DNA of 64,000 nt from an uncultured candidate division Zixibacteria bacterium (lineage in GTDB: Bacteria; Zixibacteria; MSB-5A5; RBG-16-43-9), in NCBI GenBank assembly GCA_963713865.1, contig OY970208.1, forward strand, positions 1,176,520 through 1,240,519. Direction: 5' to 3'. This document shows, one piece after another, positions 2,697 through 60,801 of this stretch. A program made the position numbers and the translations under genes. Numbering within the stretch: position 1 is the first letter of the stretch; the number at the start of each line of letters is the position of its first letter. The notes beneath the pieces are model-generated. The model had not been told where the DNA came from. It searched no databases and worked only from the letters and a program-made list of their open reading frames with translations.

Positions 2697-4013
2697 ATGA
2701 AAATCAAAAAATTTTTCAAAAATTTAATAATAAAAGGAAGCCTTCCATCTAAAAAGGAAAACAACAAATCTTTTCCCCTTCAGGAAAAGGTTCTCAGCTC
2801 ATACAGACATCTACCATCAACACCACTTTCTAAAGGTTCATTTAGTTCTGAGGATAATGATATTATTCTTCCATCCCGGCAACTTTACGATCGTACCTTT
2901 AAAATCAAGCTTTACAGATTATTAAGAGATAATATTCCTGCAATAAATTCAGCTATCTGGACCTGGACCAGGCTCTCCTCTGCTCCCTCTTCTTACAAGC
3001 TAAAAGGGAGCGAGGACCAGGATATTCTAAATCAGGCTTCAAAAATAATCTCGAACTTAGACCGAAGAGTCTACCAGCACTCCTTCCACAAATTTGGTGG
3101 AATTGAAGCTTTGCTTACTCAATTCTTCTACTCCCTTTTCACGGATGGGGCGGTATGTGGAGAATTAGTTTTAAACCCTTCGCAAAATCGTTTAGATAAG
3201 TTCTATTTTATCGATCCCTCTACCATAAGGTTCAAGTTATCCAGAACAAACTATGAGCTTTATCAAGAAATTGATGGGGAAATGATTAGACTGAATCAGA
3301 ATTCAACTTACTATTATGGTTTGGACCCTGATCCGGAAGACCCTTGTGGGAGAAGCATTTTATCCTCTATCCCTTTTGTTACCAGGATTGAACAGAGATT
3401 GCTTTCGGATATGCAGAAAAGTATGCATAATGCCGGGTATCATCGTCTGCATGTAAAGCTAAAACCACCAGAAAGGTTGCCTTCTGAATCGAATGAGGCT
3501 TATATCGGTAGAGCTAATCGTTATTTTGAGGATACTGTGGAGATGATGAGAAAAATTTCGGTGGAAGATAATCCGATAACCTGGAACGATGTGCAGATAG
3601 ATTATATCGGACCCCAGGGGGGTTATGCTGCCACCACTTCCTGGTATATTAATCATAAAGCCTTAATTGAGGAGATCTGTGCAGGTGTTCACTTAGATCC
3701 GTTTATCTTAGGGTATTCTTATGGAGCGCCCTATAGCTGGGCACAGATAAAATATGAGATGATTCAAAGGAACATAATCTCCATCCAGGCTTCCGCTAAA
3801 CGCTTTATGGAATGGATACACAATTTAGAGCTGGCGCTTCAAGGGTTAGATTTAGAATACGAGCATCATTTTGATAACCGAAAGACTTTTGGTCTATTAG
3901 AACAAAGACAGGCAGAGAAAATCGCTCTGGAGAATATTATTTTGAAAAAGAATACCGGATTGATAGATGAAGAAGAGGCGAAAAGGGAAATAAAAATAAC
4001 TGATGACAAATGA
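2697..4013 (+). CDS. Hypothetical protein co-oriented directly upstream of terminase large subunit (portal-like role possible but unproven)
   Basis: 438 aa ORF, no motif I can recognise; size and adjacency to TerL are the only arguments. Confidence 0.4.
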   Translation: MKIKKFFKNLIIKGSLPSKKENNKSFPLQEKVLSSYRHLPSTPLSKGSFSSEDNDIILPSRQLYDRTFKIKLYRLLRDNIPAINSAIWTWTRLSSAPSSYKLKGSEDQDILNQASKIISNLDRRVYQHSFHKFGGIEALLTQFFYSLFTDGAVCGELVLNPSQNRLDKFYFIDPSTIRFKLSRTNYELYQEIDGEMIRLNQNSTYYYGLDPDPEDPCGRSILSSIPFVTRIEQRLLSDMQKSMHNAGYHRLHVKLKPPERLPSESNEAYIGRANRYFEDTVEMMRKISVEDNPITWNDVQIDYIGPQGGYAATTSWYINHKALIEEICAGVHLDPFILGYSYGAPYSWAQIKYEMIQRNIISIQASAKRFMEWIHNLELALQGLDLEYEHHFDNRKTFGLLEQRQAEKIALENIILKKNTGLIDEEEAKREIKITDDK

Positions 4014-22850: not shown

Positions 22851-24030
22851 TTAAGCTTTTTTTCCTGACGGATCCATTTCTGACAAAACCCAGATTAGTT
22901 TTTCTATATCCTCAAGTGAATTGTAGAAATGAGGAGATACTCGTATTGAGTTCTCCCTGAAGGAGGTCAGTATTTTTTTCTGTGAAAGAGCTCGGTGCAG
23001 TTTTGGACAATTTTTACCAGAAAAAGAAAGTATACCTGATCGGTACAGGGGCTCAAGTGAGCTTTTGATCTGGTAAGGGGTATTTTTTAGATAATCTATT
23101 AGAAGGTCTAAAAGTTTTATGACCTGATTCTCGATAGCTTTAGTTCCAATTTCGGATATAAGCTCTAAAGAGGAACACATCGTCCATAGATTTGAAAAAG
23201 GGTAAGTCCCTATCTCAAACCTTCGACTGGAGGAGAAGCGGGGAAGGTCATATTTCAAAAGATCAGAGAAATTCAATTTCCAGTCAACACTCATCCAGCC
23301 GAAAAAAGCAGGATCGATTTTCATCTTAGCATTATCTGAAAGATAGAAAAAGCCTGTGCCCAGAGAGGAGAGCAGCCACTTCTGACCTCCACAGGCTAAG
23401 AAATCTATTTTACATTTTTTAACATCTAAATCCAGAACAGCCTACTCCCTGGATTCCATCTACAACAAAGAAAATATTTTTTTCCTCACAGATTTTTCCA
23501 ATAGTCTCCAAGTTATTTTTAAAACCATTGAAAAACTGAACATAGGTTATCGATAAGACTTTGCACTTTGAATCGATAGCTTTAAGGAGATCATCTATGC
23601 AAAAAAAACCGTTCTGGCTTTTAATAAATTTTATCTTCACGCCCTTCTTTTTCAGATTCAGCCAAGGATAAACATTTGCCGGAAACTCCACATCTGAAAG
23701 CAAAACCTTATCCCCATATTTAAAGTCCAGTCCATTTGCCACGATATTTAAACCATAAGAAGTGTTGGGCACCAATCCAATTTCTTTCGGTTTTGCGTTT
23801 ACCATTTTAGCCAGATATATTCTGATCTGGTCCATCATCTCAAAAGTCAACTTATCCATATCCACAACTTTTTTAAGGGTCAAAGCATCATAATATTCCA
23901 TTGTTTTTTTCAAAGCTCTTAAAGGAATGGGACCAAATGAGGCGTGATTAAGAAAATTAACTTTTTGGGTGAAGGGGAATTCCCTTCTGTATCTTGCTAA
24001 CTCTTTTGATTTGGTCTTTCTTAGAGCCAT
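22851..24030 (-). pseudogene. Class V aminotransferase (cysteine desulfurase / epimerase-like), interrupted by a frameshift near 23420-23440
   Basis: N-part (23419-24030) ends ...VDGIQGVG; an alternative frame continues VLDLDVKKCKIDFLACGGQKWLLSSLGTGFFY (PLP-Lys region) into the C-part ORF (22851-23324, IRVSPHFYN). Confidence 0.6.
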
Positions 24031-25008
24031 TTATTCTCCTTATACCATTTTATAGTTTCTAAAGCACCCTTTTCTAAATCATACTCCGGCGAAAATCCTA
24101 ATTCATTTTTTGCTTTTGAAATGTCGCAGAGCCAGTACCTCTGGCTTAGCTCATTTGCTTTCTGAAGATTTACCAGAGCAGATTCCCCTTTCAGGTGAGA
24201 GACCATTTCGGAGAAAGAGGCAAATGTGAACAAAAAGAATTTAGGGATTCTTAATTTAAAAGCTCTTATACCTAAGGATTTCTGGATGATCTTTCCAGCT
24301 TCTGTCCAGGAATAAACCTTTTCATCTGCTATAAAGTAGATCTGTCCGGAACTCTTTTGGTTTTCTGCGGTTAAAATTATCCCCCGGGTTAAATCTTTAA
24401 CATATATCAGGGAAATATAACTTTCTTTGAATCCAAAGAGAGGAATTATCCTTTTGTTCACCGTCTGGAAAAAAAATAAAATATCTTTATCTCTTGGACC
24501 ATAAACCGCAGGTGGTCGAACTATAGTAACCGGAAACTTCTCCTTAAAACTCAATACCTCTTTTTCTCCCTGAAGCTTACTTCTGCCATAATCGGTGATC
24601 GGCTCGCATTTTGCATCTTCATTTAAAGGGTAAAAATCTTTGCAGGGACCAACTGCGGCTTGACTGCTGACATAAACAAACTTCTTAATATGAGAATTGA
24701 TCTCCAGAACAGGTTTGAATCAGGTTTTTAGTTCCCTGGGCATTTGCTTTAAAATAATCCTCTTTATTTTTCGCTCGGGTTAAACCAGCCAGATGGAAAA
24801 CGAAATCTACCCCTTCTAAAGCTTTTCTTAAGGACTCAACCTCTGTTATATCTCCGTATCTATATTCAGTTTCCAGTCCTGAAAGAAAACTTAAGTTGCT
24901 CGTTTTCCTGACCAGGCAGAAAACCTCATAACGCTTGTTTAACAGAGCTTCAACTAAATGGCTCCCCACAAATCCATTTGCACCGGTAACTAAGGCTTTA
25001 GGGCTCAA
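24021..25008 (-). pseudogene. NAD-dependent epimerase/dehydratase-family (extended SDR) protein, interrupted by a frameshift near 24670-24700
   Basis: N-part VTGANGFVGSHLV Rossmann motif; shifted frame continues KKFVYVSSQAAVGPCKDFYPLNEDAK...FPVTIVRPPAVYGPRD. Confidence 0.6.
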
Positions 25009-25152
25009 GTTTTCCTTTTCCTAATTACTGTACGGTAAAGCTTTAGCTTTACTTTCAAAGAATTTTGGGTAAACCTAAAGGCTTACACCGCAAAATATCT
25101 TTCAGAACATTGAGACGTAGGCAGTGCTTCTCTACTTATTTAAAATTTTCTC

Positions 25153-49376: not shown

Positions 49377-50054
49377 TCATCTGCCTTTTTCTTCTTCGAT
49401 ATGATGTCTGATATCTTTACCCTGCACCAAATAGATAACATCTTCAGCTATATTAGTAGCATGGTCTCCTATTCTCTCTAAATGTCTGGAGACTAAGATT
49501 AATTCCAGAGCCCGGGGTATAGTGGATTGGTCACTGAGCATAAAGGTCAGAAGCTCACGAAAAATCTGGTCTTTTAATCCATCGACTTGATCATCCCGGG
49601 TCAAAATCGAACGAGCTAAGTCTACATCCCTTTTAATGAAAGCATCTAAACTGTCTTTCACCATCTTTTGAGTCAGTTCCGCCATTCGGGGTATGTCGAT
49701 CAAGGGCTTGAGCTGAGGCTGTTTAATCAGAACTTCAGTCCGCTGAATAATATTTACCGCTAAATCCCCAATCCTTTCCAGCTCGCTGTTGATCTTCATA
49801 GCCGAGGTGATAAACCTCAAGTCCGTTGCCATCGGCTGTTTCAGAGCCAAGAGCTTAAGGCAGAGATCGTCGATCTCTATTTGAAGATAGTTAACCTTTT
49901 TCTCGTCCTGATTAACCACTTCGAATAGAGACTCATCTCTTTCCGATAGAGATTTAACCGCCTTGTAGATCATCATTTCAGCCAAGCTGGCCATAGATAG
50001 CAATTTTTCTTTTAGGAGATTTAACTCCTCATCGAAATGTTTGTGAATCGTCAT
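49377..50054 (-). CDS. phoU: Phosphate signalling regulator PhoU
   Basis: Two PhoU repeats (ERIGDLAVNI, ERIGDHATNIAED). Confidence 0.9.
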   Translation of the reverse strand: MTIHKHFDEELNLLKEKLLSMASLAEMMIYKAVKSLSERDESLFEVVNQDEKKVNYLQIEIDDLCLKLLALKQPMATDLRFITSAMKINSELERIGDLAVNIIQRTEVLIKQPQLKPLIDIPRMAELTQKMVKDSLDAFIKRDVDLARSILTRDDQVDGLKDQIFRELLTFMLSDQSTIPRALELILVSRHLERIGDHATNIAEDVIYLVQGKDIRHHIEEEKGR

Positions 50055-50075: not shown

Positions 50076-50918
50076 TCATCCAAATCGCCCGGTTACATAA
50101 TCCTCGGTCTTTTTATCTCTGGGATTGGTGAAAATCTTAGAGGTCTGGTCAAACTCCACCAGCTCTCCCAGGAAGAAGAAACCGGTATAATCCGAAATCC
50201 GGGCAGCCTGCTGCATGTTATGGGTCACAATTACAATAGTATAGTTTTTCTTCAAATCTAAAATTAACTCCTCTATCTTTCCAGTAGAAATCGGATCTAA
50301 AGCCGAGGCTGGTTCATCCATTAAGAGAACCTCCGGTTCTACAGCTAAAGCCCGGGCAATGCAGACCCTCTGTTGCTGGCCTCCGGAAAGCTTCAAAGCA
50401 GACTGGTCTAATTTATCTTTGACCTCGTCCCATAAAGCTGCATCTTTCAAAGTCCTCTCCACAGTTTCCTCCAGGATGTTCTGATTACCAATCCCCTGAA
50501 TCCTCAGACCATAAGATACGTTCTCAAAGATTGACTTGGGAAAAGGGTTCGATTTCTGGAAAACCATCCCTACTTTTCTTCTCAATTCCGAGAGCTCGAT
50601 GCCCCTGGAGTAGATATCTACTCCATCCAAAAAAACCTTACCTGAACTGTTAGCTCCCGGAATTAAATCGTTCATCCGGTTCAAGCATCTCAAGAAGGTC
50701 GATTTCCCACAGCCAGAGGGACCAATAAAGGCGGTGATCTGATTCTCCTGAATACCGATGGAGATGTCTTTCAAAGCCTGAGTTTTGCCATAGTAGAAAT
50801 TCAGTTTCTCAACCAAGATTTTGGGAGTAAAGCTCTCTATTTTCTTTCCTGATATCTCAGGAGTTTTAGGTTCGATTTTAGCTTCTGTTTCTTCTCTCAT
50901 TATGCTCTCTTCGTTCAT
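50076..50918 (-). CDS. pstB: Phosphate ABC transporter ATP-binding protein PstB
   Basis: [39 protein letters not shown]. Confidence 0.95.
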
Positions 50919-50921
50919 ATT

Positions 50922-51827
50922 TCAAACGTTATGTCTCATCTGTCTTCTTACCTTAGACCTGATAAATATAGCGATGAAATTCAAAAGTAAAGTTAAAATT
51001 AAAAGTACCAGCACAGTTCCGTAAAGGATCGGCTTGGTAGCTTCCACATCAGGAGATTGGGTCGCCATCACGTAGACATGATAACCCAGTTCCATAAACT
51101 GGTCAGTGGGCTTATGCGGCAGGTAGGGTAAAAAGTAAGCCGCACCGGTGAACATTATAGGAGCAACTTCTCCAGCCCCTCGACTGATGGAAAGGATAGC
51201 ACCGGTCAAAACCCCGGGAAGTGCCTGAGGAAGGACTACCCTGCGAATAGTCTGCCACTTGGTTGCACCTAAGGCAAAAGATGCCTCCCGAATTTCCGAG
51301 GGAACTGCTCTCAGGGCTTCCTCTGAAGCAACTACAACTACCGGAAGGTTCAAAAGGGCTAAGGTTAAAGCCGCCCACATAAGACAGGGTTGTCCCCAAA
51401 CCACCTCCAAACCAAAAAACTTATCTATTCCTGCCCCGACAAATTGTATAAAAAATCCTAACCCAAATAACCCGAAGACAATCGAAGGCACACCAGCTAA
51501 GTTGTTCACGGCAAAACGAATTGTTTTAGTCAGAGCAGATTCAGGCTTTGCGTATTCGTGTAAATAGATTGCAGTCATAACCCCAACCGGGAGTACAGCG
51601 ATTATCATTAAAATAACTAAAGCCACAGTCCCGAAAATTGCCGGGAAAATCCCGCCTGCGGTCATCCCTTCACGGGGAGCTTTGGTAATGAAATCCCAGC
51701 TTATGATCTTATGTCCCTGCAGAACTATATTCCCGATAATCACAAACAGGATGGCAAAGATAATCAGGGTCGCAAGTAAGGTTAGACCGGTAAAGAAAGA
51801 ACCGAATAAGTTAATCCTGAGTTTCAT
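50922..51827 (-). CDS. pstA: Phosphate ABC transporter permease PstA
   Basis: Multi-TM permease, position in operon. Confidence 0.85.
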   Translation of the reverse strand: MKLRINLFGSFFTGLTLLATLIIFAILFVIIGNIVLQGHKIISWDFITKAPREGMTAGGIFPAIFGTVALVILMIIAVLPVGVMTAIYLHEYAKPESALTKTIRFAVNNLAGVPSIVFGLFGLGFFIQFVGAGIDKFFGLEVVWGQPCLMWAALTLALLNLPVVVVASEEALRAVPSEIREASFALGATKWQTIRRVVLPQALPGVLTGAILSISRGAGEVAPIMFTGAAYFLPYLPHKPTDQFMELGYHVYVMATQSPDVEATKPILYGTVLVLLILTLLLNFIAIFIRSKVRRQMRHNV

Positions 51828-52790
51828 TTAAATTTTTCCCGCTAATTTCCTTTGCAACCTTCCCACAACCAGCTGGGCTAAGGAATTGATAATCAAAGTG
51901 AAGACAAAGAGGGAGGCACCGATGAAAAATAAAACATTGTAATGTGCACTGCCGTGTACCACCTCTCCTAATTCTGCGGCGATGGTGGCAGACATCGTGC
52001 GAACCGAATCAAAAATATTAGCAGAGAGCAGGGAGGCATTTCCAGAAGCCATTAAAACTATCATTGTTTCACCTACTGCCCTTCCTAGTCCTAAGATAAT
52101 CCCTGCCAGAACACCAGGCATTGCCACTGAAAGAGAAACTCGAAAGGCAGTCTGCCAGCGATTGGCTCCTAATGCCAGAGAGGCTTCCTTTAAACTCCGG
52201 GGCACAGAGTTCAAAGCATCCTCAGCTATGGAATAGATAACCGGGATGATGGCAAAGCTTAATGCCATCCCGGCATTAAAGGCGTTTAAACGCATAGTTG
52301 AATGAAAGATACTGTGAAAAAACGAAGCCATAACCATCAGAGCGAAAAAACCCAAGACCACAGAAGGTATTCCAGCCAAAATCTCAACAATCGGCTTGAT
52401 AAATTCTTTTAATTTGAGAGGTGCAAATTCTGAAGTAAAAATAGCAGCTCCTACAGAAATAGGAATTGAAAAAAAGAGGGCTACCACCACGACTTTGAAG
52501 GTTCCTAATATGATAGCAATCAAACCATATCGAGGAAAATCCGAAATCGGTTGCCAGATTTTTGTGGAAAAGAAAAGCCTTAAACTGGCTTCTTTTTTGA
52601 CTTCAGGACTAACTAGGATTGGCAAAGCCTCCCGGAAAACAAAAACAAAGATCAGAATAACAGCTAAGATCGCCAAGAAAGAGGAAAAAAAGATTACCTT
52701 TTCAATAATGAATTCAGAAAGGCGGAATCTTTTCTTGGAAATGACAAATTCCGATTGGCGTTTCTTTTCTATGGTCTTCAAGTTTTCCAT
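51828..52790 (-). CDS. pstC: Phosphate ABC transporter permease PstC
   Basis: Multi-TM permease, position in operon. Confidence 0.85.
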   Translation of the reverse strand: MENLKTIEKKRQSEFVISKKRFRLSEFIIEKVIFFSSFLAILAVILIFVFVFREALPILVSPEVKKEASLRLFFSTKIWQPISDFPRYGLIAIILGTFKVVVVALFFSIPISVGAAIFTSEFAPLKLKEFIKPIVEILAGIPSVVLGFFALMVMASFFHSIFHSTMRLNAFNAGMALSFAIIPVIYSIAEDALNSVPRSLKEASLALGANRWQTAFRVSLSVAMPGVLAGIILGLGRAVGETMIVLMASGNASLLSANIFDSVRTMSATIAAELGEVVHGSAHYNVLFFIGASLFVFTLIINSLAQLVVGRLQRKLAGKI

Positions 52791-52978
52791 ATTTCGAAAA
52801 GTTAGTGATACTTCCTTCTAAGTCTATCCTCGCATGGTGATAGTATCTTGTTTCTGATTCCCTTCCTCGATGGGAGGGGATAAAGGGAAGAGTGAAGTCG
52901 CATCATATTTTACTTCTCTCTAACCTTCTTCCGCAAGCTGCTGCTACTGTTGTTATGTAAAGTTGCAGGAATCCTCCA

Positions 52979-53449
52979 TTAAGATGATATTGATCTGTCA
53001 AGGTACTGTGAGTAATCTGTCAACCTCTGGGTGTATCTTTCTCTTATTAAATTAGATGAAATAATAAAATCTGCTGTAGATCTGTTACAAGCTGTAGGAA
53101 TATTATAAAGAACAGAGATCCTCAGCAAAGCTTTTACATCAACATCATGCGGGTGTGGTTGCATGGAATTCCAAAAGAAGATCAGAATGTCAATATTTCC
53201 TTCTGCAACCATCGCTCCAAGTTGTTGATCGCCTCCAAATGGACCTGATTTTAGTTTAACTATACTATGGTTCAATGACTGCCCTTTTTCTAGTTTCTTG
53301 GATATTACTTCCTCAACTAAGCGACCAGTAGTCCCTGTACAGATCAACCTGTGATTTAAAAGTACTTTCCAGTTCCATTCTACCCATTCGACTAAGTCAC
53401 TTTTACAGTTGTCGTGTGCAACCAAAGCAACTCGCTTCGATATTTCCAT
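52979..53449 (-). CDS. mgsA: Methylglyoxal synthase
   Basis: ALVAHDNCKSDLVEW...TGTTG...SGPFGGDQQLGA...DILIFFW...QPHPHDVDVKALLR. Confidence 0.85.
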   Translation of the reverse strand: MEISKRVALVAHDNCKSDLVEWVEWNWKVLLNHRLICTGTTGRLVEEVISKKLEKGQSLNHSIVKLKSGPFGGDQQLGAMVAEGNIDILIFFWNSMQPHPHDVDVKALLRISVLYNIPTACNRSTADFIISSNLIRERYTQRLTDYSQYLDRSISS

Positions 53450-53607
53450 GACCTCTCCTTATATCTATTCTGTTTCATAAGACTTGATTGATACGAGCCT
53501 ATGTTGTGTCATAGTCAAGCATATTATTCTGTGCCCAGCAATTTTGCATAACATCTGCACCCTTACGCAGTAAGGCTGTTTGTTAGCGGTAGACATTCAC
53601 AGCAAAC

Positions 53608-54558
53608 CTATATTACACCTGATTGTTTAAAATAACTTACCGTTTCTTCAATTCCCTTTTCATAAGGGGTGGGCTTATGGTTGAAATGTTTTTCAAATTT
53701 CGACGAATCAAACACATAATCATATTTATTTTGATACAACATTTCATAAGCTTCCCGTGTCCGCTTATCAAATACGCCTGCCAGCTTTACCATCCACTTC
53801 TTTAGAACAGTGAAGTCGGGATTTACTCCCAGCTTTTCAGCCACATTTCTTATGAATTCCTCACCGGTTAGAGGAGGGCTTGCGGTTGGTAGATGCCATA
53901 CCTGATTATTCGCACTCTCTGCCTTAGCTAAGAGGTACAAAGACTTTCCACAGTCGCCTGTATACGTGTAAGAGTGTTTGGCTTTGACATTTACTAACCA
54001 TTGTGCTTTTCTGCCTTTTGCTAGTCTTTCAATCACGAGCATAAATGGAAGGCTTGTTTTATCTGCATAAGGTCCATAGAAATCAGCAGCCCTTGCGATG
54101 ATAGCAGTGATATTGTTGCTCCTTATTTCTGAGAGAAGGTAGTCGGCTATTTGAGCCCTCACTTCGCCTTTTTTACTGCAAGGATTAATGGGGGAATCTT
54201 CCTTCATAATACCTTTCACTTTCCCATACATATACACGTTGTCAAAAAAGATCAGCCGGGCATTTTTCGATTTGCAAGCCGCAACAGTATTTTGCATTAT
54301 TATGGGCCATTGTTCTTGCCAGATTGATGTATCGTAAGGAAGTCCAACAAGAAGATAAACAACAGATGATTCTTCAAGGGCATGATTTGTTTCCTGGAAA
54401 TTAGTTAAGTCAGCTTTTGACGATTCTGTCCGCTGAACACTGTGTCCACTGCGGGATACTAGTTTTACACTTTCATTATTTGAAAGCAATTCTTTTGTCA
54501 GGATATTACCAATAGCACCACCCGCTCCAAGAATAATGTGTTTTGTAATTGTTTTCAT
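53608..54558 (-). CDS. NAD(P)-binding oxidoreductase (atypical SDR / NmrA-epimerase-like)
   Basis: N-terminal ILGAGGAIGN Rossmann motif; 316 aa. Confidence 0.6.
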   Translation of the reverse strand: MKTITKHIILGAGGAIGNILTKELLSNNESVKLVSRSGHSVQRTESSKADLTNFQETNHALEESSVVYLLVGLPYDTSIWQEQWPIIMQNTVAACKSKNARLIFFDNVYMYGKVKGIMKEDSPINPCSKKGEVRAQIADYLLSEIRSNNITAIIARAADFYGPYADKTSLPFMLVIERLAKGRKAQWLVNVKAKHSYTYTGDCGKSLYLLAKAESANNQVWHLPTASPPLTGEEFIRNVAEKLGVNPDFTVLKKWMVKLAGVFDKRTREAYEMLYQNKYDYVFDSSKFEKHFNHKPTPYEKGIEETVSYFKQSGVI

Positions 54559-54654
54559 TTGATCTTGCTCTTAGACGGATGTTATCATCCGACTTATCTC
54601 CTGCTGGATGAGGGCATCCAGCAGGAGCTTGAAAAAACTACTAACTTCCTACGA

Positions 54655-55489
54655 CTACTTGACTGGGAAATACCCAACCTTACTTACAATCTGCTGTCCC
54701 TGTTCAGACAGGGCGAAATCGACTAATTTCTTTATTTCACCAGTAGGTTTATTGCGAACATACCAGTATAGATAGCGGGAAATAGGATATTTTCCATTTT
54801 TTATATTCTCCAGAGTCGGCTCATAGCCAAGTGTTTGAGCATCCTTCTTAACTTTGCAATATTTCACTCCTTTGGCATAAGCGGCTCCTCCATAACCGAT
54901 TCCATATTCGTCCTTTGCCACTGCATTCACAATCGCCGCAGTTCCCGGAAGGGTCTCGGGTCTGGGATGCAAAATCTGCACCCGTTAAGACATTGTCCTT
55001 AAAATAAGCATAAGTGCCGGAGCTATTATCCCTGCCATAGAGGACTATTTTGGTATCATCTCCGCCTAAGTCCTTCCAGTTGGTAATCTTTCCGGTGTAA
55101 ATTCCTTTAAGTTGATCCAGGGTGAGTTCAGAGATCTTGTTTTCTTCGTTCAGATAGATAGAGAGTCCATCTCTTGCTACTGCGATTTCAACTCCTTTAG
55201 TGTTAAACCGCTCTTTCAATTTGTCAACTTCAGAGCTTTTAATAGGTCTTGAGGCTTCGCAGATGTCAGTCGAGCCATTGATTAAAGCGGCAATCCCTAC
55301 TCCAGAACCTCCACCAGTTACCTGAATAACTACTCCCGGATTCTGATTCATATAGATTTCTGCCCATCTTTGACCCAAAATGAGCAAAGTGTCAGAGCCT
55401 TTTATGGTAATAGTCTTAGCGGCAAAAACTGATAACATAACTGTAAATGATAAAGATAGAATTCCTATAACGGCTATTAGCTTTTTCAT
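54655..55489 (-). pseudogene. pstS: Phosphate-binding protein PstS, frameshift near 54960-55000
   Basis: N-part IQVTGGGSGVGIAALINGSTDI; C-part (GTG start artefact) LPGTAAIVNAVAKDEYGIGYGGAAYA in a different frame. Confidence 0.8.
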
Positions 55490-55511: not shown

Positions 55512-56779
55512 TTAAAACATAAACTGAAATTGCAAGGTAAATCTGTTGTCTTTTCTGTCGCCATCATATTTGGAGAAAATAGAGTTGTTTTTAAGTTGAT
55601 GAGGTATATCATATGCTGCCGTTATCCTTACATAAGAATCCCAGAAATAATGCAGGGCTAAAGACAAGGTTCCAGTGGCGTCGTTCTTTGCGTTCTCATC
55701 TGTATTGGGGTCCCAGTAATCATATCTGGCGGCAGCTCCAAATTTAGTGGTTAAATTCTGGGATAACCAGAGATACCAGCCCATTTCGTCGGCTAAAGAA
55801 TCCTTTGCATTTTTATTATAGTCCTGAGCCAGGTAAAGCTCTCCCCTGATTCCGGTTCCGCCGATTGGCAAGAAATCAAGATAGACCTGGGCATCAGCAC
55901 CATACCTGATCTTGTCTTTTTCCACTGCTGGGACTGCAGCTTTTGGAGCAGTGGTTTTAAACTCGCCCGGGTCTATTACTCCATTTCCATTCACATCATA
56001 CCAGCTGGTAACACCAGAAACAGCCGCGCTTCCAGGAAAATAGGTTTTACCCCAGTAACCGGAGAATCCTAAATCGACCATTCCTAATTTCGCCTTTGCC
56101 CGAGCAATTACATCTTTTGCCTTAGTAGGATCAAACCAGGTGAAGTTTTTGTCCTCTATCCCGTAACCTTGGAAAAGACCTAAGTTGAACTGGAGATATT
56201 TCGGAAGAGCCCAGGTAAGATTTGTTCCTCGGTCTCGTTCCCCTTTGAAAAGGTTATTCTCTGCCAGACTTCTTTCCGGGAAATCTCTTTTGGACGAAGA
56301 ATATTCGATCTCGTACCCGAAAGGCCAGTTGAATTGTCCAAAAGTTAGCGCGAGATTATGTTTTCCGATACTCTTGTAAAGCTCAACATAAGCTTCTTTC
56401 AATGAAACGGTATTCTTTGAAGCATCAAAATAGATAATATACTTGCTGGAAGAACCGGGCTGGACCGTGAACTTTATCCTTCCTCTCCTGATATAGAAGT
56501 TATTGGCATTTAGGTTTTTAGTGGCATCATAACCACCTGCAACTCCATTCTGGGAACTGTCATTATACTCATACCGCATCTGGATGTAGCCGGATATTTT
56601 CACCCATTTCAGGATAGCAACATCGCTGTTCAAAGTTGCCATGTTCTCCGAAATCCCATCCAGACGGTCTTTCGTTTCCTGAAGCGCAGCCTTAATGCTG
56701 TCTTCTGGGTCTGCGCCCAGGAATGATTTAGACTTATAGCTACTAATAAAAGCAAGATCAGCAAAATTTTTGTTTTCAT
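55512..56779 (-). pseudogene. Phosphate-selective porin (OprO/OprP-like), frameshift within signal-peptide region near 56700-56770
   Basis: ATG at 56779 encodes signal peptide MKTKILLILLLLVAISLNHSWAQ in one frame; mature porin ORF (55512-56642) in another; position upstream of pstS. Confidence 0.6.
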
Positions 56780-56979
56780 GTTTTCTCCTTTTTTGTTCTG
56801 GTTTCTTAAGTCCTAACTCGTCAGGCTTTCAAGCTTAACTTCTCATACCACCTCCTCGAAATATTTTCCAATTAAACTTTTTAACTTTACTTTCATATTT
56901 CCTCCTTTAATATTTTCTAATAATTGCAAAATTCATCGTCTTTCAAACTACAAATTAAACGTTCACCATATTACGCCTG

Positions 56980-57007
56980 TATTAACTCAGTGTTAATTCT
57001 GGGTTAA
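56980..57007 (-). promoter_or_regulatory. Pho-box-like element: three direct repeats TTAACC / TTAACA / TTAATA at 11-bp spacing upstream of the porin-pst operon
   Basis: Hexamers at 57007-57002, 56996-56991, 56985-56980 on minus strand; about 200 bp upstream of porin start. Confidence 0.4.
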
Positions 57008-57400: not shown

Positions 57401-57616
57401 TTAATTCTCGTTCATAAAATCTGCCTCAGGTACTTCAAATTCCTCGAATTCCTCAAGTTCCTCTAACTCGATTACTGGAGGTTTAATAAGGGTATATTCA
57501 CCCTCTATGATTTTTTCCACCACCTTAAGGAACTTCTCCGTGCTTAACCCCTGTAACTTGTAGGTTATCCAGCATGTTCTTGGGGGTGGCTTGCTTTTCT
57601 CCTTCGATTCAAGCAT
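57401..57616 (-). CDS. Small acidic protein, unknown function
   Basis: 71 aa ORF with EELEEFEEFE tail; coding status uncertain. Confidence 0.3.
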   Translation of the reverse strand: MLESKEKSKPPPRTCWITYKLQGLSTEKFLKVVEKIIEGEYTLIKPPVIELEELEEFEEFEVPEADFMNEN

Positions 57617-57631
57617 AAGTTCTACCCTGGG

Positions 57632-57853
57632 TTAATGGCTAACCAGCTCGCGATGAAATACACTCCAGTCAGAAGCAGATTGATTAACTTTCTCACAGTT
57701 TACCAATTCCTTGGTGCCGAGAAAGAACGGGCAGTGGCAATATTCGGTGCTATGGCAGAAGCTCTTGAGTTCCAAAAGATTTGGCACCATGCCGTCGAAC
57801 ATCTCAGAATCACACATCTCTATTTTCCCCTGGATCAGTTTGGGACATTCCAT
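57632..57853 (-). CDS. Small Cys-rich protein (6 Cys, CHSTEYCHCP), member of tandem MECPKLIQ family
   Basis: 73 aa; identical RBS and first 8 codons shared with upstream paralogous small ORF. Confidence 0.35.
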   Translation of the reverse strand: MECPKLIQGKIEMCDSEMFDGMVPNLLELKSFCHSTEYCHCPFFLGTKELVNCEKVNQSASDWSVFHRELVSH

Positions 57854-58020
57854 TTTCTTTCACCTCCTCTGTTGATGAATCTTTTTCATTAAATATTTTC
57901 TCAAGTAATTCAAAAACCCACTCAGAATCATCCGTCTTTGTTTTGTCCTGGATTAGCTTGGGACATTCCATTTTCTTTCACCCCCTCTGTTGATGAATCA
58001 TTTTCGTCAAATATCTTCTC
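57826..58020. repeat. Tandem duplication (2 units of about 100-115 bp) carrying RBS GAGGAGGTGAAAGAAA and start ATGGAATGTCCCAA
   Basis: Unit 1 about 57826-57900 and unit 2 about 57945-58020, roughly 90 percent identical. Confidence 0.7.
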
Positions 58021-58143
58021 TATCAGATAAAAGACCCACATACTTGGAGAAAACAGTTGCTTCCCCTTCATTTTCCTTGAAAACAGGTAAGTTAAGGAAA
58101 CAATAGCGGCAAGCGCTATACTCATCAGGATAAATGTCTGCAT
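57928..58143 (-). CDS. Small membrane protein; C-terminus overlaps the tandem repeat
   Basis: 71 aa, N-terminal TM helix; C-terminal VFYLIEKIFDENDSSTEGVKENG paralogous to next unit. Confidence 0.3.
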   Translation of the reverse strand: MQTFILMSIALAAIVSLTYLFSRKMKGKQLFSPSMWVFYLIEKIFDENDSSTEGVKENGMSQANPGQNKDG

Positions 58144-58321
58144 ATCTTTTAATCTTCCTTGCGAATCATTTTCTCATTCATAAAGTCATAAAGTCCATTT
58201 GAACTCGCTAAAGTAAACGATAGCTTGATTTCAGTGAGATTAACTAAAGGTTAAATCTATGTTAAAAAGGTTGGATTAATTAAAAATGTCAGTTGAAGGA
58301 TATGTATGCTGGCAAAAAAGA

Positions 58322-60091
58322 CTATGCTTTTCTCAACCTGAAGCTAAATTCACTCCCCTTACTCAATTGACTTCTAACATTTACTGTTTCCCCGTGAGCT
58401 TCGATTATATGCTTGACAATGGAAAGTCCCAGACCGGTTCCACCCGATTCCCGGGAGCGGTCTTTATCAACCCGGTAAAACCTTTCAAAGATTCGGGGCA
58501 GGTCTTTTTCAGGGATTCCGATTCCGGTATCTATTACCGCAATCTCGATATAGTCTCCTTTATCCCGGCTCTCGATTTTGATCTTTCCATTTAGAGGGGT
58601 ATATTTGACGGCATTATCCACCAGATTAGTCAATGCCTGAGCTATTCTGTACCTGTCACCTAAAACTCTCTGGTTTTCAGAATTTAGTACTATTTCTATT
58701 TTTTGTGATTTCCCCTCTGCTAAAGACTTGAGAGCAGATAAAATCTCTTCAAAAAGCTCTTTGATCAAAAATGGTTCTAATTTCAATTCAAAATCCTTGG
58801 ATTCGATGAGGGAAAGCTGTAGTAAGTCAGAGATGATTTTGTTCATCCGGTCAGTATGCTGGGAGATTATGGAAAGGAAACGAGCTGATTTTTCCGGGTC
58901 GTTTATGGCTCCATCTTTTAACGCTTCCACAAAGCCCTTGATTGAGGTGATGGGGGTTCTTAATTCATGCGAGACATTTGCCACAAAGTCTTTCCGTATC
59001 CTTTCAGTCTTCTTAAGTTCGGTTATGTCGTGAAAAACGAAAATCGCAAAAATCGCACCCTCCTTTTGTCTTTCTACCAGAGCAGACTGGACCATAAAAT
59101 CTTTTTCCCTGGGATAGATAAAAGAGAATTCCATACTTTTACTCTCCTGGCTCGAAAGAACTGTCTGGATGAATTGGTTCAGTTCATGACTTCGGATCAG
59201 CTCAAAATAGGATTTACCGTAAAAAGATTTATCCAGCTCGAACATCAGGCACATAGCAGAGTTTGCCAGAATGACTTTACCCTGAGAGTCTATGGCTAAT
59301 ACCCCTTCGATCATACTGGAGAGGATGGACTGCATCTGTGATTTATCCTCAGTAATCTGCTCTATCTTCCCGGAAAGCTCAACCGACATCCGATTTAAAA
59401 TTTCAGCCAGCTCTCCGATCTCGTCTCTGGTTCTTACATTGACCTTTTGAGAGAAATCACCTTCAGACATCCTCCTTCCCACTTGCATCATCTGTCTTAA
59501 AGGTCTGGTTACCCTGTATGAAAATCCGAAACTTAAGAGGAACGAGAAGATGAAAGCTACTACCAGTCCTAAAAGGACAAGTTTGATGATCATATTTTGC
59601 CTATGTCTTAACTCAATCAGAGGTAAGGATAAGCGAGCTACTCCGATGATTTTACCTTGGGCTTTTATAGGAAAAGCTACATAGAGCATATCTTCTTTGA
59701 TGGTATAGCTATAGCGAATACTTTTTCCAACTTTGCCCTGCAGGGCTTCTGCAACCTCAGGTCTATTTTTGTGGTTCTCCATGTTTAAAAGCGCTTTTCC
59801 ACTCTCATAGGAATCTGCGACCACTTTACCATTTCTGTCAATTATGGTTATCCGACCCTGTATTTTATTACCGAGCTCATCTGCCAGGCTGTCTGTTTTT
59901 GTTAAATCCAAGTTTTCTAATAGAGGGGAAGCAAATATATTAGATAAAAGCTGTGTTTCAAAGATCATACCCTGTTCGAGTTGAGTAAGTGAGCGCTTTC
60001 TTTCAGAGGAGGAGATTAAAATCCCGGCAAGGGAAAGCCCTAAAATACTCAGCAGAAGATAGGTCAAGAACAATTTCCACTGCATCTTCAT
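58322..60091 (-). CDS. phoR: Sensor histidine kinase (PhoR-like: TM, HAMP, PAS, HisKA, HATPase)
   Basis: SHELRTPITSI H-box; GGTGLGLSIVKHI G-box; genomic context with pst operon. Confidence 0.8.
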   Translation of the reverse strand: MKMQWKLFLTYLLLSILGLSLAGILISSSERKRSLTQLEQGMIFETQLLSNIFASPLLENLDLTKTDSLADELGNKIQGRITIIDRNGKVVADSYESGKALLNMENHKNRPEVAEALQGKVGKSIRYSYTIKEDMLYVAFPIKAQGKIIGVARLSLPLIELRHRQNMIIKLVLLGLVVAFIFSFLLSFGFSYRVTRPLRQMMQVGRRMSEGDFSQKVNVRTRDEIGELAEILNRMSVELSGKIEQITEDKSQMQSILSSMIEGVLAIDSQGKVILANSAMCLMFELDKSFYGKSYFELIRSHELNQFIQTVLSSQESKSMEFSFIYPREKDFMVQSALVERQKEGAIFAIFVFHDITELKKTERIRKDFVANVSHELRTPITSIKGFVEALKDGAINDPEKSARFLSIISQHTDRMNKIISDLLQLSLIESKDFELKLEPFLIKELFEEILSALKSLAEGKSQKIEIVLNSENQRVLGDRYRIAQALTNLVDNAVKYTPLNGKIKIESRDKGDYIEIAVIDTGIGIPEKDLPRIFERFYRVDKDRSRESGGTGLGLSIVKHIIEAHGETVNVRSQLSKGSEFSFRLRKA

Positions 60092-60114: not shown

Positions 60115-60801
60115 CTAAGTACTTTCTTTTAATTTATAACCCAGATTTTTCACGGTCTGAATTGCTTCAGTTAGAATAGGAATTTTTTCTCTTAATCTCC
60201 TTATATGTACATCTACTGTTCTCATTCCGCCATAATAATCATATCCCCAAACCTCGTCCATCAGATAATCTCTGCTTAAAACCCGGCCTTTGCTGCGTAA
60301 AAGACACTCTAACAAATCGAATTCTTTTGAGCTTAACTCAACTGTCTTATTATTAAAGGTAGCTTCATGTCTGGATAAATCTAAAGAGAGATTCCCATAA
60401 CGATATACTTTTTCTTTTTCTGCCTTTCTTTCAATTCTGCGAAGCAGGGCTTTCACCCTTGCAACTAATTCCTTAGGACTGAAGGGCTTGGTTATGTAAT
60501 CATCCGCCCCTAATTCCAGCCCAATGATTTTGTCTGTTTCCTCTCCCTTGGCAGTCAGCATGATTATCGGGACAGATTTGGTTTTAGGATCTGACCTTAA
60601 TTCTCTACAAACCTCTAACCCGTCCATCTCCGGAAGCATTATATCCAGTATTACCAAATCGAAGTTTTCAGCTCGTGCCTTTTTAAGACCCGAGAACCCG
60701 TCCAGAGCATCTGTCAGAACGAAATTTTCTTTTTCCAGATAATGCCCTACCAGTTCAACGATATCTTTATCGTCCTCAATTACTAAAATCTTTTTCGACA
60801 T
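60115..60801 (-). CDS. phoB: OmpR/PhoB-family response regulator
   Basis: Receiver domain (LVILDIMLPEMDG) plus winged-helix (RTVDVHIRRLREK); context. Confidence 0.85.
   Translation of the reverse strand: MSKKILVIEDDKDIVELVGHYLEKENFVLTDALDGFSGLKKARAENFDLVILDIMLPEMDGLEVCRELRSDPKTKSVPIIMLTAKGEETDKIIGLELGADDYITKPFSPKELVARVKALLRRIERKAEKEKVYRYGNLSLDLSRHEATFNNKTVELSSKEFDLLECLLRSKGRVLSRDYLMDEVWGYDYYGGMRTVDVHIRRLREKIPILTEAIQTVKNLGYKLKEST

Follow-up and report, generated by a model that had tools for sequence, protein, structure and literature searches.

A methylglyoxal synthase gene as an apparent recent addition to a Pho-type phosphate-uptake operon in an uncultured Zixibacteria bacterium

Why should a gene for methylglyoxal synthase (MgsA) stand inside an operon for phosphate uptake? 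The question is raised by a 64,000-nucleotide stretch of an uncultured candidate division Zixibacteria bacterium (assembly GCA_963713865.1, contig OY970208.1, positions 1,176,520 to 1,240,519; hereafter the window), in which profile searches and a map of open reading frames (ORFs) place on the minus strand, in this order, a porin gene, pstS, a gene resembling those of short-chain dehydrogenases/reductases (SDRs), mgsA, pstC, pstA, pstB and phoU. The five genes of pstSCAB-phoU are all present, co-oriented and in the S-C-A-B-U order, but they are not contiguous: 1864 nt separate the pstS stop from the pstC start, and this interval holds the SDR-like gene (53608..54558, 316 aa, PF01370 Epimerase at 58.8 bits) and mgsA (52979..53449, 156 aa). 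An earlier note on this DNA, made without database searches, had described both genes on the same strand between pstS and pstC, with gaps of 96 to 188 nt, and ORFs and profiles agree with that description, the spacers measuring 96 nt between pstS and the SDR-like gene (54559-54654), 158 nt between the latter and mgsA (53450-53607) and 188 nt between mgsA and pstC (52791-52978). The note offered functional coupling and recent insertion as alternative explanations, which are not mutually exclusive. Judged from sequence comparison, mgsA is mobile and joined this Pho-type pst operon recently; its repeated occurrence beside pst genes speaks for a functional coupling maintained by selection, a proposition to which we give even odds, and co-transcription, Pho control and a physiological benefit of mgsA in the operon are what we infer from the same comparisons.

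That a misassembly joined the two genes to the pst operon can be ruled out, since the junctions recur in independent contigs from other datasets and nothing was found in favour of a chimera. The SDR-mgsA junction is reproduced at 99.9% identity by an independent short-read contig from another dataset (L081), the pstS-SDR-pstC junctions are spanned at 93.7% identity by a locus of another genome (L082, GCA_964354635.1), and a third contig (L087) carries pstS-mgsA-pstC.

The product of mgsA is, by all sequence measures used, a genuine methylglyoxal synthase. It scores 198.1 bits against NF003559 (cut-off 84), 152.9 bits against TIGR00160 (cut-off 146.9) and 40.3 bits against PF02142 (cut-off 24.1), and over its full length it can be aligned with the enzymes of known structure from Thermotoga maritima (1vmd, E 5.5e-47) and Escherichia coli (1b93, E 1.3e-37). 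The alignment with 1b93 keeps the motifs AHD..CK, GTTG, SGP.GGDQQ and PHD.D and conserves (E. coli numbering) the catalytic Asp71 and His98 together with His19, Asp20 and Asp101, as well as the phosphate-binding Lys23, Thr45/47/48, Ser65 and Gly66.

How unusual the position of mgsA is can be judged against 80 pst loci from other genomes, fetched via PstC (best PstC match 59-65% identical). These loci share a common phoB-phoR-(porin)-pstS-pstC-pstA-pstB-phoU layout in which pstS and pstC are contiguous except where, in a small number of loci, other genes are inserted, and a homologue of mgsA or of the SDR-like gene occurs nowhere in them (0/80). The synteny comparison proposed in the earlier note therefore returns an unusual arrangement, and one in which close relatives vary for both inserts. 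In L082 (~93% nucleotide identity to the window) the order is pstS-SDR-pstC; the mgsA module, delimited by BLAST breakpoints and junction sequences at 52801..53569 of the minus strand, is missing there, with 35 nt standing in place of the 769 nt of the window. L087 (MgsA 89% identical) shows the complementary state, porin-pstS-mgsA-pstC without the SDR gene, and L086 (MgsA 92%, SDR 95%) carries the SDR gene, a 133-aa membrane ORF and mgsA. The last-mentioned ORF (L086 1335-1736), hydrophobic and without a Pfam match, occupies the interval between the SDR gene and mgsA, and its counterpart stretch in the window appears to have been deleted.

The age of the inserts can be read from synonymous divergence. 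Between the window and L082, the synonymous rate (dS) is 0.05 for the SDR gene, against 0.52 for pstS and 0.32 for pstC, and sliding identity reveals a block of 97-100% from ~54712 to 53613 between flanks of 79% and 76-78%. Between the window and L087, the proportion of synonymous differences (pS) is 0.34 for mgsA (dS 0.46), whereas porin, pstS and pstC are saturated (pS 0.75-0.79). Because the synonymous divergence of the inserts lies far below that of the flanking genes, both are younger than the surrounding pst operon, which implies horizontal exchange or recombination. Ratios of nonsynonymous to synonymous divergence (dN/dS) of 0.09-0.30 indicate purifying selection on the compared genes. 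Composition is less telling: both inserts are mildly atypical in GC content at third codon positions (GC3; 0.33 and 0.35 vs 0.43 +/- 0.05) and in an index similar to the codon adaptation index (0.70 vs 0.76 +/- 0.015), a deviation that fits a foreign origin and might be taken as a weak hint of it, insufficient by itself. The idea of a recent insertion thus gains from the absence of the mgsA segment in a ~93% relative and from the low synonymous divergence of both genes, while the codon-usage and GC comparison suggested in the same place does find the two genes atypical but cannot alone establish where they came from.

Whether mgsA has been kept next to pst genes by selection is a separate matter, on which a second architecture bears. 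In L089, L093 and L169/L170 (MgsA 81-84% identical) mgsA ends one pst operon, just 5' of the pstS of a second operon, and in L093 the distance from the pstB stop to the mgsA start is 16 nt, too short to accommodate a promoter between the two genes. Among mgsA loci informative for linkage, defined as those with at least 1.5 kb of flank, pst genes adjoin mgsA in 5 of the 10 at MgsA identity of at least 80% and in none of the 54 below 80%, a contrast with a one-sided hypergeometric p of ~3e-5 by hand calculation (~2e-4 if L169 and L170 are counted once) in which the loci are phylogenetically non-independent. In a neighbour-joining tree, the pst-linked loci form two separate clades that match the two architectures. 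The linkage arose at least twice in its clade and has therefore probably been selected. The functional-coupling alternative is in this way supported by comparative genomics (two linked clades, differing architectures, the 16-nt spacing of L093), and the repeated linkage suggests co-regulation under phosphate shortage.

The main rival explanation is that the inserts are neutral passengers: the pstS-pstC spacer would be the only gap of the operon into which DNA can be inserted without disturbing translational coupling, and modules would turn over there with no connection to phosphate. Several observations are in keeping with this, among them the differing presence and absence of the inserts in close relatives, their mildly atypical GC3 and codon usage, the fact that mgsA comes with its own leader and that the SDR family is not linked to pst elsewhere (see below for both), and the occupation of the same spacer by other genes in other lineages, namely an LMWPc/ArsC-like gene in L049 (2807-3295) and an ORF of 360-380 aa in four Ignavibacteria loci (L059 1915-3000, L062 6556-7704, L066 1895-2992 and L069 6747-7829). 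The Ignavibacteria ORF has no Pfam match and probably encodes an outer-membrane protein. Against neutrality stand the second architecture, in which mgsA follows pstB or phoU rather than pstS, the concentration of linkage in the close clade, and the nature of the LMWPc/ArsC-like gene, also present after pstB in L169 (2380-2802), which is phosphate- or arsenate-related, so that the site looks enriched for relevant genes. On this balance, neutral insertion into a permissive spacer seems to us possible but rather unlikely.

The triple direct repeat TTAAY-N6-TTAAY-N6-TTAAY occurs in perfect form only twice in the window, both times on the minus strand in intergenic DNA of the pho cluster: at 56981..57007, where it overlaps a promoter-like TTAACA-17-TAATAT ~200 nt 5' of the porin start, and at 58239..58265, 3' of phoR and 5' of a group of small ORFs. 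With up to two mismatches, 10 matches were found in the 64 kb against 3.2 expected, and no shuffle reached 10. Comparable sites lie 5' of the porin gene in L087 (41-67) and 5' of the second pstS in L169 (3986-4012). The two perfect repeats are candidate PhoB boxes for this lineage, whose true binding motif may differ. Downstream, a hairpin with a perfect 13-bp stem, a 4-nt loop and no U tract stands just 3' of pstS (54598..54627, minus strand); L082 shares this sequence exactly, and at the corresponding place L087 carries a hairpin of different sequence. A consensus scan of the minus strand from pstS to pstC detected no intrinsic terminator. Since there is no canonical terminator in this interval and the hairpin lacks a U tract, transcripts that start at the Pho-box promoter could plausibly continue through the SDR gene and mgsA into pstCAB-phoU. 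Promoter-like matches are at chance level (22 vs 19.7 expected). An Rfam scan at gathering scores returned only a tRNA for the whole window, and none of its models matched 52700-54750 at E <=1; as far as these models reach, the window contains no known riboswitch or leader.

Alignment of upstream regions did uncover a conserved leader of ~90 nt directly 5' of mgsA (53450..53540, minus strand), with the core TAGGCTCGTATCAATCAAGTC followed by AAGGAGAGG. It is present in the window, L086, L087, L088, L090 and L169, and it travels with mgsA in pst-linked and unlinked loci alike, L088 and L090 having no pst genes. On this evidence, mgsA may additionally have its own promoter.

The reading that we favour can then be outlined as follows. 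Two single-gene modules occupy the one large spacer in the operon, immediately 3' of the pstS hairpin, having reached it through recent horizontal exchange or recombination. Transcripts from the Pho-box promoter 5' of porin-pstS would pass the hairpin and run into mgsA, adding to any that start in the mgsA leader, and scarce phosphate would thereby lead to more MgsA being made. MgsA is inhibited by inorganic phosphate (Pi), and the methylglyoxal bypass is considered important under phosphate limitation because it frees Pi from dihydroxyacetone phosphate (PMC11850910, PMC3146418). The Pi-inhibited enzyme should therefore be active at low Pi, and by converting dihydroxyacetone phosphate to methylglyoxal and Pi it would release phosphate that is trapped in triose phosphates.

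A number of observations weigh against functional coupling and Pho control of mgsA. The linkage appears to be dispensable: half of the close-clade loci are unlinked, and a close relative has lost mgsA at this site or never had it there. The non-independence of the loci counted above reduces what the contrast between the clades can carry, and the unrelated genes in the pstS-pstC spacer of other lineages mean that a permissive site could explain part of the pattern. As to regulation, the 13-bp hairpin could terminate most transcripts at the end of pstS; there is no Pho-box-like site directly 5' of the SDR gene, mgsA or pstC, nor does the pattern match close to the homologues of mgsA or of the SDR gene in 18 further loci; and the occurrence of the mgsA leader in the unlinked L088 and L090 may indicate Pho-independent transcription. 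Finally, no gene for methylglyoxal detoxification adjoins mgsA in the window.

What, then, of the gene that shares the spacer? The earlier note had called it an SDR-type oxidoreductase, and this label holds for the fold only. The AlphaFold2 (AF2) model, with a mean predicted local distance difference test (pLDDT) score of 92.9, finds in Foldseek searches RmlB, GalE and UDP-glucuronic acid (UDP-GlcA) epimerase at template modelling (TM) scores of 0.75-0.82, in line with the PF01370 match, and sequence identity to such NDP-sugar epimerases/dehydratases is 15-19%. A Gly-rich motif, GAGGAIG, occupies residues 11-17, with G11 and G14 invariant, so that the Rossmann motif and the two-domain fold are in place. 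The Ser/Thr...Tyr-x3-Lys signature of classical and extended SDRs is not: Thr126, Tyr149 and Lys153 of 6zl6 align with Asn107, Lys130 and Arg134, which do not vary in an alignment of the window protein with 120 homologues or in one of 34 sequences. There is no match to NCBIfam equivalogs. With the canonical triad replaced by Asn-Lys-Arg, we file the product of 53608-54558, on its sequence and predicted structure, as an atypical extended-SDR-fold protein and not as a proven oxidoreductase. Asp106, Arg36 and a motif P-x-S-x-K-G-x-x-R are invariant in the family as well (homologues P0001-P0120). Homologues 59-71% identical are spread across Zixibacteria, Ignavibacteria and Bacteroidota; the family is widespread and highly conserved, with a noncanonical Asn-Lys-Arg centre.

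The neighbourhood of the two genes invites the idea of a two-step module, in which the methylglyoxal formed by MgsA would be reduced by the SDR-fold protein, yielding lactaldehyde or acetol and giving a phosphate-recycling bypass that detoxifies its own product. Extended SDRs of the yeast Gre2 type do reduce methylglyoxal; the genes are neighbours in the window and form an SDR-X-mgsA series in L086, and a distant SDR homologue adjoins an aldehyde dehydrogenase gene (L083/L084). The two-step module is opposed by the Asn-Lys-Arg replacement throughout the family, by the independent occurrence of the genes (SDR without mgsA in L082, L083, L085 and L173; mgsA without SDR in L087, L089, L093, L169 and all other loci) and by their differing divergence from relatives, and it strikes us as very improbable. 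At 69-71% identity, the SDR gene is a solitary gene in unrelated contexts (L083-L085, L173), and the family shows no pst linkage beyond the closest relatives of the window. The SDR gene is therefore most likely an independent passenger, outside whatever connects mgsA with phosphate.

How did the modules come to this site? Traces of insertion are clearest in relatives. In L087, a 28-nt copy of the end of pstS, comprising its nine final codons and the stop, lies 3' of mgsA at 86% identity, a score equalled by 0 of 2000 shuffles; the repeat copies lie at 2337-2364 and 3031-3058, and the relic reads DKVGYFMVK*. A similar relic in L086 reads NKVGYFPVK*, and the two ends of that contig (1-27 and 2503-2529) share 27 identical nucleotides that begin in the stop codon of the relic, a pattern that would follow if the whole SDR-X-mgsA block were bracketed by direct repeats of the pstS 3' end. 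A small circular element as the source of L086 was considered and not accepted, as the 27-nt overlap would fit a break of the assembly graph at a direct repeat of ~33 nt at least as well. The flanks of the L086 block resemble those of the window only in the 3' region of the SDR gene and in the mgsA leader. In the window itself, no convincing direct repeats bracket the insert, and a possible decayed relic of the pstS 3' end, 3' of mgsA (52922..52951, minus strand), is marginal in a local alignment (p ~0.04 by shuffling). The relics suggest integration at the pstS 3' end or recombination within it, and the vestige of a lost second pstS would explain them equally well. An integrase or transposase ORF was found neither in nor adjoining the insert, and the only repeats that flank it are those of the pstS 3' end in the relatives L086 and L087, so that it lacks the recombinase and defined attachment sites of a mobile element.

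A bolder interpretation takes the pstS 3' end as a dedicated landing site for small, promoter-bearing, single-gene cassettes that are exchanged among Zixibacteria, Ignavibacteria and relatives with no recombinase in cis, each insertion leaving a duplicated pstS 3' end. Its cassettes would include mgsA, the SDR-fold protein with Asn-Lys-Arg, the 133-aa membrane protein and the ArsC-like phosphatases. We regard this interpretation as improbable. Were it true, the pst operon would serve as an expression platform for phosphate starvation, and the SDR-fold family would be a new phosphate-starvation enzyme or sensor.

One further possibility is that the locus is decaying, the pst operon being inactivated by frameshifts and foreign DNA while another phosphate system takes over. 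Its starting point is a pair of frameshifts less than 2 kb apart, one in the porin gene and the other in pstS, both of which the earlier note had overlooked. In pstS (54655..55489, minus strand), an extra G at 54957, lacking in L082, causes a +1 frameshift as assembled, which leaves two ORFs covering TIGR02136 positions 38-194 and 197-294; with the G removed, a PstS of 277 aa results, collinear with 277-aa PstS proteins of Zixibacteria at 86-91% identity. No identical intact copy of PstS was present in the protein collection, where nothing exceeded 91% identity. The phosphate-selective porin O/P gene (55512..56779, minus strand, PF07396) is broken as assembled by a missing C in a CCC run at 56707-56709, where the alignment with its 415-aa homologues passes from one frame to another. 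The porin belongs to a 90%-identity cluster in which the named members are Zixibacteria; like the PstS identities, this makes the organism a probable member of that group. At least four genes are split in the 64 kb. Elsewhere in the window, a class-V aminotransferase gene (22851-24030, minus strand) is divided between two ORFs, one matching positions 9-181 and the other positions 244-369 of the Pfam profile, and a gene for an NAD-dependent epimerase (24021-25020, minus strand) has profile positions 1-103 and 161-239 on separate ORFs. Since several genes are split, the source contig is a single piece of 2.72 Mb, the two pho-cluster frameshifts share the context CAGACCC[.]AGA and a one-base repair restores PstS, the frameshifts probably stem from consensus errors in a long-read assembly. 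The same facts tell against decay, as do the dN/dS values of pstC, mgsA and the SDR gene (0.12-0.30), and we hold inactivation of the operon to be highly unlikely.

The pstC gene (51828..52790, TIGR02138 at 248.6 bits) is followed on the minus strand by pstA (50922..51827, TIGR00974 at 280.1 bits), pstB (50076..50918, TIGR00972 at 408 bits) and phoU (49377..50054, TIGR02135 at 221.7 bits), with gaps of 0 nt between pstC and pstA, 3 nt between pstA and pstB and 21 nt between pstB and phoU, and all four products score above their own equivalog cut-offs. The upstream part of the cluster runs from phoB-phoR through small ORFs to porin-pstS: its first gene encodes a phoB-type response regulator (60115..60801, minus strand; used as a tblastn query, it matched the genes in phoB position in the 80 pst loci), and the second is an ORF for a phoR-type sensor histidine kinase (58322..60091, minus strand), relatives keeping the phoB-phoR-porin-pstS position. 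Between phoR and the porin gene, 3' of the second Pho-box-like site, lie three small ORFs of 71-73 aa (57401-58143, minus strand) without Pfam matches, one of them Cys-rich; an imperfect direct duplication of ~80 nt (~57805-57885 and ~57925-58000) comprises the start of one of them and the 3' end of another. A 17-codon ORF with a Shine-Dalgarno-like sequence (56842-56895, minus strand) separates the Pho-box promoter from the start codon of the porin gene; it may encode a leader peptide or have arisen by chance.

Methylglyoxal synthase is linked to phosphate in textbooks, on the strength of enzymological and physiological work with a small number of model bacteria. In the literature searched, we found no report of a gene-level link of mgsA to the pst operon or the Pho regulon. 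The repeated presence of mgsA inside phosphate-uptake operons of uncultivated lineages gives independent genomic support for a role in releasing Pi from triose phosphates when Pi is scarce, and the locus offers a directly testable case, by co-transcription with pst genes and induction that depends on Pi. It also illustrates that small accessory genes can land in a core operon and turn over there between close strains.

Set beside known systems, the SDR-like protein shares with the extended SDRs RmlB (1ker), GalE (4zrn) and UDP-glucuronate 4-epimerase (6zl6) the two-domain fold, at TM ~0.8, and the Gly-rich motif; it differs in its low identity to them, in having Asn107/Lys130/Arg134 for Thr/Tyr/Lys and in falling outside the NCBIfam equivalogs. 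Some mobile elements use the 3' end of a tRNA gene as their integration site. The blocks of L087 and L086, each followed by a relic of the last nine pstS codons and the stop, are like such insertions that duplicate a 3' end, and they differ from them in that no integrase or transposase is seen at the insert and the relic of the window is marginal. MgsA itself corresponds to 1b93 and 1vmd over its full length, above both NCBIfam equivalog cut-offs and with the aligned catalytic and phosphate-binding residues kept, and is set apart by a 10-residue insertion (~residues 49-58) common to its clade and by the location of its gene within a pst operon. The accessory genes in other pst operons (L049, Ignavibacteria) belong to other gene families, in loci devoid of mgsA and SDR homologues, and use the pstS-pstC spacer as in the window. 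From the canonical pstSCAB-phoU operon under PhoB-PhoR control, the window departs by a porin gene before pstS, which is common in related lineages, by two unrelated genes that part pstS from pstC, and by a pstS that is frameshifted as assembled; it agrees with it in the genes, their order and strand, the tight pstC-A-B-phoU series, the hairpin after pstS, and the phoB-phoR pair and direct-repeat boxes with 11-nt spacing that lie upstream.

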